Source: Minisyncoccota bacterium (GTDB lineage: Bacteria > Patescibacteriota > Minisyncoccia > Phycocordibacterales > UBA9973). Taken from it: a DNA stretch of 40,097 nt. The translations under genes were made by a program, and so were the position numbers. Within the stretch, counting starts at the first letter, position 1, and each line of letters opens with the position of its first letter. The stretch lies in contig JBAZVG010000001.1 in the NCBI GenBank assembly GCA_041661005.1, positions 72,019-112,115 of the forward strand. Direction: 5' to 3'. Of this stretch, positions 2,610-31,318 are shown one piece after another. The notes under the pieces are model-generated. The model saw only the letters and a program-made list of their open reading frames with translations. It ran no database searches and was not told the origin of the DNA.

Positions 2610-3845
2610 ATGGGAAAGAAAAAAGTTTTTGTCGGACTCTCGGGAGGAGTGGATTCTGCTGTCAGCGCGGCGTTGCTTCAAAAATTTGGCTACGAGGTCA
2701 TAGGAGTTTTTATCAAGACTTGGCATCCAGATTTCTTAGAGTGCAATGAAGAGGAAGAACGGCTTGATGCCATGCGTGTGGCAGCCCATCTTGATATTCC
2801 ATTTCTGACTTTTGATTTTGAAGATGTCTATAAAAAGGAAGTTGCGGATTACATGATTTCCGAATACAAAAAGGGGAGAACTCCTAACCCCGATGTGATG
2901 TGTAACAAGCACGTTAAATTTGGCGCATTTCTCAAAAAAGCCATTGCGATGGGGGCGGATTATGTGGCGACGGGTCACTACGCAATGGCAAACAGTGGGT
3001 TTTCCTTTTTTGGGTCGCTGTCTCCGCGTGCTCGCGGAGCGCTGCCTCTCGGCTCGTCAGCCTGCGAGACACCCAAAAAAGGAAAACCCACTGTTTGCTT
3101 GTTTAAAGGAGTAGATCCGTCAAAAGATCAAAGTTATTTTTTGTGGACATTGAAACAAGAACAATTGAAGAGAATTTTATTTCCCGTTGGGCATTTAAAA
3201 AAGACGGAAGTTCGCAAACTTGCCAAGAAATTCAATCTGCCGGTTGCAGAAAAGCATGATAGCCAAGGCATCTGCTTTCTGGGTGATATAGATTTAAAAG
3301 AATTTTTGAAACATTATATAAAAGAAAAAAAAGGCGACGTAATCGTCGTCCCGAGCGAAAGCGAGGGGCGAGATAAAGATGATGTAATTGGTCATCATAA
3401 TGGTGTTGTCTTTCATACACTCGGAGAACGACATGGTTTTACAATTACCAAAAAAAGTCCAACTGATGGACCATATTATATTGTCGGGAAAGATGTGAAG
3501 AAAAATATTTTAATGGTGTCTCAAAATCCTCTCCCCAACCCCTCTCCATTAATTATTAATGGAGAGGGGCGAAGGGGTGAGGTAATTAAAATAATTAACA
3601 CAAATTGGATAGATAAAATTCCAGAAGAAAATAAAAGTCCTGCCCGCAATGCTTTCAGCATAGCTGATGCAGGCGGGTATACCGCCCAAATCCGTTATCA
3701 CGGAGAATTTTTACCATGCCAAATTAAAATAACTGGAAAATCAAAAGCTGAGATAATTTTCAAAAAACCAGTTTTAGTTGCCTCCGGTCAGTCTGTGGTT
3801 ATCTATGATAAAGATATTTGTCTTGGGGGAGGAGTTGTTGTATAA
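2610..3845 (+). CDS. mnmA: tRNA 2-thiouridine(34) synthase MnmA, carrying several short in-frame palindromic insertions
   Basis: SGGVDS PP-loop, TPNPDVMCN, VATGHYA, KDQSYFL, DSQGICF, ASGQSVV. Confidence 0.97.
   Translation: MGKKKVFVGLSGGVDSAVSAALLQKFGYEVIGVFIKTWHPDFLECNEEEERLDAMRVAAHLDIPFLTFDFEDVYKKEVADYMISEYKKGRTPNPDVMCNKHVKFGAFLKKAIAMGADYVATGHYAMANSGFSFFGSLSPRARGALPLGSSACETPKKGKPTVCLFKGVDPSKDQSYFLWTLKQEQLKRILFPVGHLKKTEVRKLAKKFNLPVAEKHDSQGICFLGDIDLKEFLKHYIKEKKGDVIVVPSESEGRDKDDVIGHHNGVVFHTLGERHGFTITKKSPTDGPYYIVGKDVKKNILMVSQNPLPNPSPLIINGEGRRGEVIKIINTNWIDKIPEENKSPARNAFSIADAGGYTAQIRYHGEFLPCQIKITGKSKAEIIFKKPVLVASGQSVVIYDKDICLGGGVVV
2988..3098. repeat. 111-bp intragenic palindromic element (27-bp perfect arms around a 57-bp core) in mnmA
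   Basis: Arms 2988-3014 and 3072-3098 are exact reverse complements. The core is 52/57 identical to the copy in tgt. Confidence 0.95.
3539..3569. repeat. 15-bp-arm palindrome (CCCCTCTCC...GGAGAGGGG type) inside mnmA
   Basis: cccctctccattaat-t-attaatggagagggg, encoding part of NPLPNPSPLIINGEGRRGE. Confidence 0.85.
3639..3677. repeat. 39-bp CCTGCC...GGCGGG intragenic element in mnmA
   Basis: cctgcccgcaatgctttcagcatagctgatgcaggcggg encodes PARNAFSIADAGG. Same length, termini and frame as 10560-10598. Confidence 0.75.
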
Positions 3846-4332: not shown

Positions 4333-5979
4333 ATGGACTCAAATGAAATCAGGTCAAGATTTTTAGAATTTTTTAAAAAAAGAGGACATAAAATAATTCC
4401 TTCATCTTCACTCGTTCCGGAAAATGACTCTTCGGTTCTCTTTACGACGGCAGGGATGCAACAATTTAAAAATTACTACACTCATCCCGAAAGCGCGGAT
4501 AAAGATTTTGGCAACAGGAATATTGTTACCGTGCAAAAATGTGTTCGCACTGGCGATATAGATGAAGTCGGCGATGCCACGCATCTGACTTTTTTTGAAA
4601 TGCTTGGCAATTTTTCTTTTGGCGGATATTGGAAAAAAGAGGCTATAGAATATGCCTATGATTTCATCACTAAAGAACTTAATTTAACTATTGATTATGT
4701 TTCAGTATTTGAAGGGGATACAGAAACTCCTGCAGATAATGAATCTCGAGAGATTTGGAAAAATATCGATTCAAAATTAAAAATAAAAAATCACAATCGA
4801 GCGGATAATTTTTGGGGACCAACTGGAGACGAAGGTCCATGTGGTCCGACGACTGAGATATATATAAATGGGGTAGAAATTTGGAATATAGTTTTTAATG
4901 AATTTTATAAGACGAAAGAAGGAAAATATGAACCGTTAAAAGTTCGGGGTATTGATACTGGGATGGGTTTAGAAAGACTTTCGGTGCAAGTTCAAAAAAA
5001 GAAAAATGTTTTTGAGACTGATCTCTTTAATGACGAACAGACCCGAGAAGAACGCATTGTTGCTGATCATGTCAAAGCTTCTCTCTTCATGATTTCAGAT
5101 GGTGTGGTGCCTTTCAATACTGGGCGTGGATATATCGTGAGAAGATTAATAAGGCGTGCAGTTAGATTTTCCAAGCAACCGTTGGCTCAAGAAGTTGAAA
5201 AAGTAAGAAAAATATATCAGGGAGTATATTATCTTGACGATAAGGGTCAAATTCTAAAAGAAGAAAATAAATTTAGGGAGACACTTGAAAAGGGGTTAAA
5301 AGAAATTGAAAGGATGCCTAATTTAACAGGAGAAAAAGCTTTTTCAATTTATGAAACGTATGGTTTTCCTCTAGAACTTTTAGAAGAAGCAAGAGAAGTA
5401 AGTAATAGAGATGATTTTTTTAAAAAAATGAAAGAACATCAAGAAAAATCTCGTACCGCTTCCGCTGGGATGTTCAAGGGGGGTCTAGCGAATCATAATG
5501 AAAAAACTATCAAACTTCACACGGCGCATCATTTGCTTTTAGCTGGACTCCAAGCAGTGGTGGATAAAAATATAAAACAACGGGGAAGCAACATCACCGA
5601 AGAGCGTTTACGTTTAGATTTTCTCTGCGACCACAAATTGACCGATGAAGAAAAAAAGAGGGTAGAAGACTGGGTAAACGAAAAAATAAAACAAAATTTG
5701 GGTGTTGTGCGTAAAGAGATGCCACTTAATGAAGCAGAAAAACTTGGAGCAGAAATGGAATTCGGGGCAAAATATCCAGATGTAGTATCTGTTTATTTTA
5801 TTGAAGACAAAAATGGTAATCCTATTTCTAAAGAATTTTGTGGCGGTCCGCATGTCGCGAACACTAGTGAACTCGCTAGTGTTCGCGACCCTGAAGGTAA
5901 TCCGAAGGGTAATTTTAAGATTTTAAAGGAAGAAGCAGTGGCTAAAGGCATTCGGCGTATCAAAGCTGTGCTTGTGTAG
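4333..5979 (+). CDS. alaS: alanine--tRNA ligase, short form (no C-Ala domain)
   Basis: FTTAGM, QKCVRTGDIDEVG, TFFEMLGNFSFG, DTGMGLER, editing motifs HTAHH and CGGPH; 548 aa. Confidence 0.96.
   Translation: MDSNEIRSRFLEFFKKRGHKIIPSSSLVPENDSSVLFTTAGMQQFKNYYTHPESADKDFGNRNIVTVQKCVRTGDIDEVGDATHLTFFEMLGNFSFGGYWKKEAIEYAYDFITKELNLTIDYVSVFEGDTETPADNESREIWKNIDSKLKIKNHNRADNFWGPTGDEGPCGPTTEIYINGVEIWNIVFNEFYKTKEGKYEPLKVRGIDTGMGLERLSVQVQKKKNVFETDLFNDEQTREERIVADHVKASLFMISDGVVPFNTGRGYIVRRLIRRAVRFSKQPLAQEVEKVRKIYQGVYYLDDKGQILKEENKFRETLEKGLKEIERMPNLTGEKAFSIYETYGFPLELLEEAREVSNRDDFFKKMKEHQEKSRTASAGMFKGGLANHNEKTIKLHTAHHLLLAGLQAVVDKNIKQRGSNITEERLRLDFLCDHKLTDEEKKRVEDWVNEKIKQNLGVVRKEMPLNEAEKLGAEMEFGAKYPDVVSVYFIEDKNGNPISKEFCGGPHVANTSELASVRDPEGNPKGNFKILKEEAVAKGIRRIKAVLV
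5854..5889. repeat. 14-bp-arm perfect inverted repeat inside alaS
   Basis: gtcgcgaacactag (5854-5867) and ctagtgttcgcgac (5876-5889) with an 8-nt loop. Confidence 0.9.
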
Positions 5980-28822: not shown

Positions 28823-29839
28823 TTAACTATACTTTTTTATCAACTTATTTGCTTCTTTTGGATTTGCTTTACATTCTAAAAGCGCGGTCAAAATAAGAGG
28901 AACGACGATGGTGGCGTCGGATTCTACTACGAACATTGGAGTGTCTTTGGTTAGTTTATCCCAAGTTATTTTTTCATTTGGAGTTGCTCCAGAATACGAA
29001 CCATAAGAAGTTGTCGAATCAGAAATTTGACAGAAATAAGCCCAAGGTTTTACCTTGCTGACTTCCATGTCATATTTGAGAGATGGTACGACACAGATAG
29101 GGAAGTCTCCGGCTATTCCTCCACCTATTTGAAAAAAACCGATTCCATTGCCTTTGGAAAGTTCTTGATACTGGTCATAGAATGCTCCCATATACTCTAT
29201 GCCACTCTTGGCGATGTTTGCGCTTGCACCGCCCTTCTTTACATGTGAAGCAAAAATGTTGCCAAAAGTGGAGTCTTCATAGCCCGGCACAACAATGGGG
29301 ATATTGTTCTCGGCGGCGGCCAAGAGCCAGCATTCTTCTGCTTTACCTTCGTGCTTTTTTTTATCTATCGCTTGAATCAAGTCATAAAAATATTCATGCC
29401 AGAATTTGCGGGTTTTTTCTTTTGTTGCTTTTTCCCAGACAGGCACAATCAAGCTCTCTACTGCGCGGAATGCTTCATCTTCTGGGATGCTGGTATCTGT
29501 AACTCGGCGCATGCGATTTTCTAAAATTTTTGTATCATCTTCTTTGGTGAAATATCTGTAATCAGGGAAATCTTTATAACTGTCATGCGCCACTAGGCGA
29601 AAGAGAGATTCCTCTAGATTTGCGCCAGTGACAGACATGCTGTGAATAAGGCCGTTTCTGATAGCGGGCGCGAGTGTGATGCCCAGCTGGGCTGAAGACA
29701 TGGCTCCAGCCATAGCCCAAAACATTTTTCCGCCTTTTTCTAAATGTCTCCAATAAGCAACGAGCGCGTCGCGAGTAGCGCGAGCGTTAAAATTTTTATA
29801 ATTTTTTAGAATGAATTCTAATGTTTCTAAATTTGCCAT
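28823..29839 (-). CDS. deoxyhypusine synthase-like protein (bacterial SpeY-type, putative homospermidine pathway)
   Basis: AGAMSS, TGANLEE, DSTFG, IGGGIAGDFPIC, SYGSYSGATPNEKITWDK (catalytic Lys position kept). Confidence 0.9.
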   Translation of the reverse strand: MANLETLEFILKNYKNFNARATRDALVAYWRHLEKGGKMFWAMAGAMSSAQLGITLAPAIRNGLIHSMSVTGANLEESLFRLVAHDSYKDFPDYRYFTKEDDTKILENRMRRVTDTSIPEDEAFRAVESLIVPVWEKATKEKTRKFWHEYFYDLIQAIDKKKHEGKAEECWLLAAAENNIPIVVPGYEDSTFGNIFASHVKKGGASANIAKSGIEYMGAFYDQYQELSKGNGIGFFQIGGGIAGDFPICVVPSLKYDMEVSKVKPWAYFCQISDSTTSYGSYSGATPNEKITWDKLTKDTPMFVVESDATIVVPLILTALLECKANPKEANKLIKKYS

Positions 29840-29932
29840 AGATTGATAATAATATCAGTTATTTAATTATAATAATCCAATTGTAGAGCAATCAGAAATA
29901 GTGTCAAGCGCCATGGAAATAAAAGACATAAT

Positions 29933-31318
29933 ATGGTATACTATAGTGTGCATGAAAGGATAAGAAGTACCGAAAAAATCTGTTGTTATCGAAATTCTTA
30001 TTTTGGTATCTTCTTCTTTTTCCTCCTTTTTTTTCTAGCAAACAACTTAGCTTCCGCGGAACTTGCAACTGCCAAAGTTGCTCTCCCTTTATATATTTAT
30101 CCCTCAAATGGAGAAACAAACTGGACCAAAGCTCATACTTTTGGACAAAAAATTGATTTTATTATTGCTAATGTCTACAACGGTCCAAGCGGGGAAGTAA
30201 ATTCCGATTGGACGAACATGATTGAAGCTACTATTCAAAATCATATAAAAGTATATGGTTATGTTTACACAAGCTATGGGGCAAGGGCAGGAAGCAAGGT
30301 GGACGAAGATGTGGCAAGGTGGCTACAACTTTATCCCCAAATCAGTGGTATTTTCTTGGACGAAACTGCTTCGAGCTCCGACAAAATTCCTTACTATAAA
30401 GCGCGCTATGATTATATAAAGCGATTGAATTCTTCTCTAAGGGTAGTCATCAATCCCGGAACTGTTACCGATGAAGGATATATGAATGTGTCTGACGTGA
30501 ATACTATATTTGAAAGCAATCTTTCGTCGTGGAATAATGCACATTTTCCTGAATGGGTTTTAAAATATCCCGCTAGCCGTTTTTATTCGATCATCTATGG
30601 AGTGTCGAGTGAAGAAGAAATGAAAAATGTGGCGCGAGTCGCTCGAGAAAAGAATTTTGGGGAGGTATTCATTACAGATGCCTTCTCTCCTTCGGATAGG
30701 CTCCCAACTTATTTTTCATCAGAAATATCTGAAATTACAAGTGTAACTACTCCAATCATTCCCCCGGTTGTTCCTCCAATAGTTATTCCCCCAGTAGATC
30801 CAGTCATTCCCCCAATAAATAACGAACAGACTTCCAATCCTCCTTCTCCCGACCTCTGCTCTAACATTTCAGGAATTCAATTATCAATTCCTTCTAGCAT
30901 GAATATAGTAAATCTCGAGTGTGTAATCCAAGATGTTGGTAATAACGTGTCGGAGGATATTTCAGACACCACGACTTTCTCTGAAAATAGAACAGTTGTT
31001 AAAATTACGCCTGCGCCCATACCCATAGAAGAATGTTACGACGGTAGCCAGTATAACAGGTCCACCGGAGCGTTGTGCGCTAATAACAATCCAGTTTACA
31101 ACTTCGGCTCTACTATTCTCAAGAATGGAAGCAAAGGTGAAGCGATTAAAGAACTCCAAAGATTTTTAAATGCAAAATTAAATCTTGGCCTTGTGCTGGA
31201 TGGTAAATTTGGTCCGAAGACGACCGTTGTCGTCAAGAAATGGCAGAGAGAGAATGGTTTAGTGGCTGACGGTATAATTGGACCGAAAACGAAAGCAAAG
31301 ATGGAGACAGATTTATAG
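29933..31318 (+). CDS. secreted spherulation-specific family 4 (GH135-like) hydrolase with Pro-rich linker and C-terminal peptidoglycan-binding domain
   Basis: VALPLYIYP, NGP, GIFLDE, VINPG, FES; linker PIIPPVVPPIVIPP; LKNGSKGEAIKELQRFL...DGKFGPKT..VKKWQ...ADGIIGPKT. The start may be GTG 29948. Confidence 0.8.
   Translation: MVYYSVHERIRSTEKICCYRNSYFGIFFFFLLFFLANNLASAELATAKVALPLYIYPSNGETNWTKAHTFGQKIDFIIANVYNGPSGEVNSDWTNMIEATIQNHIKVYGYVYTSYGARAGSKVDEDVARWLQLYPQISGIFLDETASSSDKIPYYKARYDYIKRLNSSLRVVINPGTVTDEGYMNVSDVNTIFESNLSSWNNAHFPEWVLKYPASRFYSIIYGVSSEEEMKNVARVAREKNFGEVFITDAFSPSDRLPTYFSSEISEITSVTTPIIPPVVPPIVIPPVDPVIPPINNEQTSNPPSPDLCSNISGIQLSIPSSMNIVNLECVIQDVGNNVSEDISDTTTFSENRTVVKITPAPIPIEECYDGSQYNRSTGALCANNNPVYNFGSTILKNGSKGEAIKELQRFLNAKLNLGLVLDGKFGPKTTVVVKKWQRENGLVADGIIGPKTKAKMETDL

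Follow-up and report, generated by a model that had tools for sequence, protein, structure and literature searches.

The alanyl-tRNA synthetase gene (alaS) of a Minisyncoccota bacterium, lying in a stretch of 40,097 nt that is referred to here as the window, carries an in-frame 33-nt insert (5875..5907, + strand) that encodes the peptide ASVRDPEGNPK. Sequence comparison shows the insert to be a cassette of two parts, placed behind the CGGPH motif of the editing domain and read as a loop of 11 residues, composed of a 15-nt arm (5875-5889) that is an inverted copy of native codons and a copy of a dispersed hairpin module (5889-5909). In the form found here, termed type 1, the cassette is old and specific to alaS, with an arm that remains complementary to each lineage's own codons. 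The explanation that we favor, as probable if some way from assured, is that a module resembling repetitive extragenic palindromic (REP) sequences and Rickettsia palindromic elements (RPE) is joined to a host-templated arm, and that complementarity would be kept mainly by template switching at the level of DNA, a mechanism that we infer from the patterns described below.

The source genome consists of 933 kb in 15 contigs with 38% G+C, and the window corresponds to C1:72019-112115; the names of its closest database proteins point to Candidatus Nomurabacteria (Patescibacteria, Paceibacteria). In the list of open reading frames (ORFs), alaS occupies 4333..5979 on the + strand and encodes a short alanyl-tRNA synthetase (AlaRS) of 548 amino acids with the tRNA-synt_2c catalytic and tRNA_SAD editing domains; PF01411 and PF07973 of Pfam were matched on database protein P0001, which is identical to the window AlaRS. 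The codons of the C-G-G-P-H motif (5839..5853, +), which we take to be the zinc-binding Cys-x3-His of AlaRS, are found in all relatives and provide a native anchor immediately 5′ of the palindrome; C503, G505, P506 and H507 are invariant across 44 AlaRS homologues. In the alaS frame CGGPH is followed by V-A-N-T-S-E-L and then by ASVRDPEGNPK. The first-pass annotation of this DNA had described two arms that are exact reverse complements, the left one encoding V-A-N-T-S after CGGPH, and this can be read directly: positions 5854-5867 (GTCGCGAACACTAG) are the exact reverse complement of 5876-5889 (CTAGTGTTCGCGAC). A repeat search extends the arms of this hairpin (H1) to 5854-5870 and 5873-5889, giving 17 positions (16 Watson-Crick pairs and one G·T) around a 2-nt spacer, and RNAfold assigns 5854-5889 a folding energy of -27.9 kcal/mol. 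The left, native arm (5854..5870, +) comprises the V-A-N-T-S codons and the GA of Glu, the native Glu-Leu codons GAA CTC (5869..5874, +) hold the symmetry centre, and the right arm (5873..5889, +) begins with the TC of the native Leu and continues into A-S-V-R-D, the first five codons of the insert; it is the reverse complement of the S-T-N-A-V codons and covaries with the left arm in 15 relatives. Since synonymous-codon shuffles of alaS and simulated genomes hardly ever yield such a stem (no stem of at least 12 bp in 300 shuffles; 0-1 stems of at least 14 bp per 0.9-Mb Markov-simulated genome of matched dinucleotide content), a chance origin of the alaS stem is excluded.

Which arm is native and which is new follows from the empty site. 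Among AlaRS tails of the same genus and order, 26 of 28 read CGGPH(V/I/A)xxTxxL(G/S)xF(K/T)I with no extra residues, and an alignment of C-termini of the kind that had been proposed for this gene thus places the insert between Leu and Gly of an empty site EL|GxFKI. The empty site is present in 156 of 186 related alaS genes, a sample picked by patterns outside the insert, and the close congeners G007, G009 and G013 lack the insert. Because the insert-less relatives hold the left-arm codons, the left arm is native: the codon positions are present and conserved in all 156, V-x-N-T-x-E-L is kept, and one of these genes (L015) reads GTC GCG AAC AC... at this point. The right arm, by contrast, is inserted sequence, and the earlier proposal that it is an inverted copy of conserved native codons is borne out both by the empty site and by the way in which it tracks those codons in relatives.

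The insert appears to be accommodated as a loop. In an AlphaFold2 model built from 44 homologues (mean predicted local distance difference test score, pLDDT, 79.9), the CGGPH segment and the strand at 528-537 are connected by a coil of residues 515-525, for which pLDDT is 66-68, and other insert lengths, from +3 to +15, occur at the same alaS site among relatives; both observations are consistent with a tolerated loop, and the insert peptide is most likely a tolerated passenger. In a mapping onto AlaX and AlaRS editing domains in the PDB the alignment ended at the insert and gave no structural placement. Elsewhere in the gene, the match of alaS to the window AlaRS splits between residues ~145 and ~181 in many relatives, with open frames of 580-690 amino acids as against 548, and this region of the catalytic domain seems to be another insert hotspot in those genes.

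The insert is shared widely. About half of the 120 best database homologues carry an insert at this site, a proportion enriched by a query that itself contained the insert, and homologous inserts are found patchily in many Nomurabacteria. DNA was compared for about 200 alaS C-termini, and the inserts fall into three peptide types: type 1 is ASVRDPEGNPKGNFKI-like, type 2 reads (Y/D/C)SSSRxxSRDxGPFKI, and the shorter type 3 reads AANPEGxPKHFKI. All of them end in a common GC-rich core such as ATCCCGAG-loop-TCGAGGGAT in their distal part. The same insert type and register as in the window occur in at least 16 other alaS genes, and related types in more. A single de novo template-switch or fold-back event in this genome would account for an arm that is an exact inverted copy and for the absence of the insert from G007, G009 and G013, and the first-pass annotation had treated the hairpin as such a private event; this reading is refuted by the other carriers, and we give it hardly any credence, the insert being old (it differs synonymously from those of other carriers) and half of it being a dispersed module.

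What sets this insert family apart is the persistence of the palindrome through sequence change. In every type-1 gene the 12 codons V-x-N-T-x-E | L-x′-S-(V/I)-x′-D are palindromic and centred exactly at the native Glu|Leu junction; counted from the TGT codon, this centre falls at nt 32.5 in each type-1 relative. In 3 of 15 type-1 genes (L191, L192, L131) the palindrome is perfect over 18+18 nt, straight through the centre, and the three 36-nt sequences all differ: GTCGCGAATACTCGCGAG|CTCGCGAGTATTCGCGAC, GTTGCGAATACTAGCGAG|CTCGCTAGTATTCGCAAC and GTGAAGAACACTAGCGAG|CTCGCTAGTGTTCTTCAC. Type-2 stems are of 13-14 bp and use another register, centred on the G of GAG (nt 30.0), with the right arm in a different frame and read as Y/C-S-S. 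Across the 15 type-1 relatives 87% of cells are paired and both sides have changed in 10 of 16 pairs, a value that none of 500 shuffles reached and that fell to 0-3 in slid registers; in type 2 the corresponding figures are 90% and 4 of 13 pairs. The paired changes are legible codon by codon. Host Val codons GTC, GTG and GTT, which differ silently, stand opposite insert Asp GAC, His CAC and Asn AAC; host Ala GCG, Lys AAG, Lys AAA and Ser TCG stand opposite insert Arg CGC, Leu CTT, Phe TTT and Arg CGA; and host Asn AAC or AAT stands opposite insert Val GTT or Ile ATT. The insert amino acids thus follow the host nucleotides and not vice versa, and because insert-less relatives keep V-x-N-T-x-E-L while insert residues track host synonymous codons, information flows from the native arm to the insert. 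The tip of the alaS hairpin is formed by the native Glu-Leu codons, with the conserved module beside the hairpin and not at its tip, and this host origin of the tip leaves no ambiguity as to which arm was copied.

These patterns leave next to no probability for the idea that pairing is a coincidental by-product of a functional, conserved ASVRD-like peptide, or that it arose as an assembly artefact. Peptides of this kind are indeed common to relatives, an outcome which the first-pass annotation had named as refuting if complementarity were absent; they come with complementarity and covariation, and the peptide changes with host codons (R to F or L, D to H or N, V to I) exactly as complementarity predicts, in stems that never arise in shuffles. 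Inverted repeats can provoke sequencing errors, a point in favor of an artefact, but the same structure is present in independent assemblies from many studies and the insert preserves the reading frame.

The distal half of the insert (5889..5909, +) is a diverged copy, CCCTGAAGGTAATCCGAAGGG, of a short hairpin module that is dispersed in genomes of Paceibacteria, within genes as well as between them, and that folds through ACCCT/AGGGT plus GG/CC at -9.0 kcal/mol in the alaS copy. The local module consensus is CCCTGAG-N5-TCGAAGGG, and its outer pairs covary with those of TCCC...GGGA. A search with TCYCGAG-N5-6-TCGAGGGA found the module in 42 of 301 genomes of the order, on both strands and with up to 13 copies in each, as against none for a reversed control; a relaxed pattern gave 18 copies in the source genome, that at alaS 5889-5909 included, as against one for its reversed control. 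Three intermediates (L111, L197, L113) bridge the gap between the consensus and the variant found in alaS. Numerous copies are in frame, in both orientations, within ORFs of 200-1365 amino acids, where the predicted translations read PFDFAQGK, PSTPLG, LRLRSGQG, SRxxSRD and PEGNPKG; module pairs are also present in intergenic gaps. Three other descriptions of the insert were dropped. That it is unique in the genome rested on a blastn-short search that returned only the self-inverted match, and the degenerate pattern then found 17 more module copies; an imperfect 12-nt tandem (CCTGAAGGTAAT/CCGAAGGGTAAT) together with an upstream GGTAATCC match had been taken for templated pieces, and the segment proved to be the module; and a tRNA-Ala acceptor-stem mimic was rejected as no G3:U70-like pair was seen by eye.

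Several observations concern the behaviour of the module elsewhere. In the alaS of a relative (L230, G084:C33:8159-8378) the loop of one module encloses a second copy, as TCCCGA-cttg-TCCCGAGTGAAATCGAGGGA-gtga-AGTCGAGGGAT, and nesting of the form CCCGAGCG[...]AGTCGAGGG also occurs at L228, L232 and L242-L244; the module loop seems to be a preferred entry point. A module copy at C1:541997-542017 has a 12-nt direct repeat (TCATGGATTCAA) on both sides that resembles a target-site duplication; no direct repeat flanks the alaS insert. Neither the alaS region nor four other module loci matched an Rfam model at E <= 1, and no larger parent element was found beside the module copies in G051 and G057.

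The type-1 cassette has a history of its own. A variant of the module defined by GAA instead of GAG, a GGTAAT loop and CCGA instead of TCGA was found in 2 of 401 genomes, and only in alaS, and its copies differ from one another at synonymous sites. As the variant is confined to alaS and carries these synonymous differences, type 1 is one old lineage at alaS, and the covariation of its arms records change after insertion. The alternative is that modules were gained independently at a hotspot marked by the native mini-palindrome, that the arm was built once in each lineage, and that covariation is a record of separate insertions followed by neutral decay. Such gains would suit a dispersed, multi-copy module, the two registers (centre nt 30.0 or 32.5) with unequal arm lengths, the second module nested in the alaS insert of G084, stems that appear either perfect or decayed, and the very patchy distribution. 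Against this, the derived type-1 features (GAA, the GGTAAT loop, CCGA) are found in alaS only and are missing from generic copies, synonymous differences inside the module indicate age, and a mismatch signature GAG/CGA is common to distant carriers and is unlikely to have recurred. Independent gains may account for the split between types 1 and 2; as a general explanation we think them improbable.

How one old lineage came to be so scattered was examined on a full-length AlaRS tree (IQ-TREE, insert columns removed, 138 leaves), which replaced a FastTree analysis of 200-residue fragments that was too weak. The insert states require 35 changes on the 138 leaves, as against a mean of 45 and a minimum of 38 after shuffling, and well-supported sisters may be of unlike type, as with the window (type 1) and P0026 (type 2), joined at 89% support. 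At the same time, carriers share codon choices in the arm: synonymous-codon identity there reaches 0.52 for type 1 and 0.63 for type 2, versus 0.39 for insert-less genes, and flanking blocks have no type-specific choice. Val is encoded by GTC in 13 of 15 type-1 genes versus 21 of 133 insert-less genes (p = 5e-8), and Leu by CTG in 9 of 11 type-2 genes versus 5 of 133 (p = 2e-9). That polyphyletic carriers should agree in their arm codons suggests that the cassette is exchanged laterally; the interleaving of types is not explicable by losses alone, and on the simplest reading of the sequences arm, centre, arm and module would move jointly as a short cassette between alaS alleles. Forcing the type-1 carriers into one clade costs 1483 log-likelihood units, and a single clade is rejected (approximately unbiased, AU, test, p = 3e-49). 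Two considerations temper this: the group tested was chosen with the tree already in view, and the patchiness could partly reflect many losses and not lateral exchange.

Other loci show the arm-and-module layout as well. An inverted repeat that is perfect and specific to its locus, ends exactly at the 5′ edge of the module and measures at least 6 bp is present at 8 of 44 distinct module copies versus 3 of 221 controls (p = 4e-5), and one of at least 8 bp at 5 of 44 copies versus none of 221 control positions (p = 1e-4). The clearest parallel lies outside the window, in recG (G000:C1:491105-493447), where a module in reverse orientation (C1:492098-492117) is read as PFDFAQGK. The empty site in relatives is RP-NGQ-SFGNLQVAY and the source genome has RP-FDFAQGKL-QSFGSLQVAY; the arm adjoining the module, CAAACTC, is the reverse complement of the native downstream codons GAGTTTG, and the recG genes of two congeners contain perfect 12-bp stems of differing sequence, CGCTTGCAGACT/AGTCTGCAAGCG and CGTCTGCAAACT/AGTTTGCAGACG. 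A common order of native arm, small native palindrome at the centre, copied arm and module would describe these cases. The recG ORF also holds an unrelated 20-bp perfect palindrome (C1:491550-491593).

Within the window, mnmA has a 15-bp perfect palindrome (3539-3569; CCCCTCTCCATTAAT / ATTAATGGAGAGGGG) that belongs to a second recurrent family, CCCCTCTCC...GGAGAGGGG, with at least four copies in the genome, C1:200660, 460252 and 620164 among them. Because this family recurs, the mnmA arms are not entirely copy-specific. The earlier suggestion that copy-specific arms come from the host is supported by recG and by 8 of the 44 module copies. On the scale of the window as a whole, cumulative GC skew climbs steadily to about 30 kb (region ~29000-31000) and then drops; replication may start or terminate here, or the genes may change orientation.

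Two accounts compete to explain how complementarity is kept in alaS. The first, to which we give a minority share of the probability and which we therefore regard as unlikely though deserving of weight, is ordinary compensatory evolution of a functional hairpin under selection, whether as an mRNA element (stability, processing, or ribosome pausing before the last β-hairpin of the editing domain) or as a DNA or single-stranded DNA structure needed for persistence or spread of the cassette. Strong covariation in two registers, the great stability of the stem at -27.9 kcal/mol, its retention over deep divergence with the outermost GTC/GAC pair staying where inner pairs are lost, and the unusual uniformity of synonymous sites in the carriers' native arms would all be expected of such a structure. 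Other features fit it poorly: seven genes keep two uncorrected mismatches, a deletion of the centre that takes the native Glu-Leu as well separates near-identical strains, Rfam has no match, and neither a T-run nor any other signal lies 3′ of the hairpin.

The second account, template switching at the DNA level, is favored by five features of the data. First, G·U is not preferred over A·C, each accounting for about six mismatches in type 1 with one repeated outer position set aside, counts that are small and phylogenetically non-independent and to that extent blunt the argument. Second, pairing spans the would-be loop in three genes, an extension that an RNA hairpin does not need, and GAG|CTC centres, themselves 6-nt palindromes, are enriched (4 of 15 type-1 versus 8 of 138 insert-less genes, p = 0.019). 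Third, 84% of related alaS genes manage without the structure. Fourth, the same layout recurs in unrelated genes and in both orientations, as in recG, which also speaks against a gene-specific RNA role. Fifth, the palindrome has recently been altered: two environmental alaS sequences from GROS21 samples, L191 and L199, differ over 1,680 nt only in a deletion that takes 18 nt from the centre of the palindrome and in one adjacent base. The deletion lies between two TCGCGA repeats, removes the native Glu-Leu, and leaves a perfect 6-bp hairpin, GTCGCG-AATACC-CGCGAC. Two further near-identical AlaRS proteins have one or two residue differences, one of them inside the palindrome in each; the alaS palindrome is a site of recent change.

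Under DNA-level template switching, the arm would have been written, and then repeatedly rewritten, by short-range template switching or fold-back synthesis of the kind known as quasi-palindrome correction, with the pre-existing native mini-palindrome GAG|CTC as a possible nucleation point. The native arm would act as the master copy, given that selection on AlaRS would filter changes in the native arm and not those in the insert arm, and the cassette, its native arm included, would spread between alaS alleles through short-tract recombination. Template-switch mutations can create perfect stems and help to maintain them (PMC8794818; PMC5453318), and the former study calls its own evidence for stem maintenance circumstantial.

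A number of points weigh against this explanation. No template-switch event is placed on a single branch, and stepwise compensation under selection for a hairpin could fit; multi-base paired differences between carriers do occur (GCG/CGC versus AAG/CTT) on a cassette tree that does not resolve the branches on which they arose. Seven type-1 genes in which x1 is Glu, distant on the tree, share the same two uncorrected mismatches (GAG/GAA opposite CGA/GGA), and any templated correction must therefore be inefficient. No enzyme is linked to the module, and every sequence compared here is a metagenome assembly. The inverted copy accounts for only 15 of the 33 inserted bases, and the view that the insert's hairpin arm is a copy of host sequence holds for these, the remainder being the dispersed 20-nt module. 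The palindrome-generating mechanism proposed in the first-pass annotation, template switching or fold-back repair, likewise gains from the maintained complementarity and is still a matter of interpretation, as selection on the hairpin could yield the same result.

Three known systems invite comparison. Template-switch mutations and quasi-palindrome correction were reportedly described by Ripley in 1982 and by the Lovett laboratory. The alaS arm resembles their products in being a short exact reverse complement of nearby sequence, within about 100 nt and in the range of tens of bases, and in its perfect stems, pair changes on both sides and small pre-existing palindrome at the centre. It is unlike those cases in that the stem always abuts a dispersed repeat module. 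More recent work on template-switch mutations includes that of Loytynoja & Goldman 2017 (PMC5453318) and Monttinen & Loytynoja 2022 (PMC8794818). The latter deals with RNA genes, and the term 'protein-coding' is absent from its text; in alaS, unlike there, one arm is coding sequence under purifying selection and the other a translated insert dictated by host synonymous codons.

The RPE, summarised in a review of miniature inverted-repeat transposable elements (PMC10969869), offer a second parallel. Like the module, they are dispersed in-frame hairpin repeats in housekeeping genes, read as an extra peptide in a small AT-rich genome. The module differs in measuring ~20 nt as against roughly 100-150 nt for RPE, in a stem that is partly host-copied, and in a cassette common to the orthologues of many species with compensatory change. 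It is therefore not filed as an RPE, a separation that goes by size and host phylum.

REP repeats and REP-associated tyrosine transposases (RAYT) were reportedly treated by Nunvar in 2010 and by Bertels & Rainey in 2011. Such REP/BIME repeats (BIME, bacterial interspersed mosaic elements) carry a conserved GTAG or CGTC tetranucleotide at one end of the palindrome (PMC3733652). As in that system, the palindromes are imperfect (20-40 nt), are present in many copies, run in either orientation and often occupy intergenic gaps in pairs where genes end. Such pairs are seen in G051 (L278, L280), where TCCCGAGCTTTGTCGAGGGA and TCCTGAGGAACTCGAAGGA, 33 nt apart, form fixed pairs in the gaps next to gene ends; their flanks are conserved, and the arrangement closely resembles BIME clusters. 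Unlike REP or BIME, many module copies are intragenic and in frame. By inspection, none of the 44+18 module copies has a GTAG or CGTC end tag, and the one variant that contains GTAG has it within the loop; on the 5′ side the flank reads YTTG, CCTG or TTTA, with TCCC/CCCT...GGGA/AGGG at the ends. Genes of the Y1 transposase family (PF01797), with ORFs of ~220-260 amino acids that are similar in size to RAYT, are common in the order, where a single genome may have as many as 14 (G186). No match to PF01797 was found in the source genome, the relatives' genes of this family do not lie in the contig neighbourhoods of exact module copies, and a link between Y1_Tnp and the module across genomes is not significant (12 of 14 versus 18 of 30, p = 0.08). 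Lacking the end tag, a Y1 transposase in its genome and a significant cross-genome link, the module does not qualify as REP/RAYT.

A bolder possibility, which we hold to be rather unlikely and put forward as speculation, is that the module is a transposase-free, self-adapting selfish element. It would enter conserved genes as a 20-nt unit at small native palindromes, write host codons backwards into its stem by template switching, and spread between the orthologues of different species by very short-tract recombination, for example with taken-up DNA fragments, the hairpin being needed for persistence or spread. If so, a side effect would be the routine appearance of new surface-loop peptides set by host synonymous codons.

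A search of the literature found no description of in-frame palindromic inserts in Patescibacteria. The alaS insert offers a natural case in which base pairing, and not protein function, would set part of a protein. Selection on an essential enzyme holds one arm in place, so that the direction of copying is known, which is rare for hairpins, and the copy-specific hairpin arms in genes of the candidate phyla radiation (CPR) are tied to a dispersed module. Some 30 orthologous carriers, in two registers and with a recent deletion of the centre, form a test bed for asking whether stems are compensated by selection or by templated mutation. Movement of short cassettes between orthologues is suggested in organisms that are thought to depend on DNA uptake and, if the interpretation is correct, hairpin insertion would provide a steady supply of new loops in the reduced proteomes of Patescibacteria.

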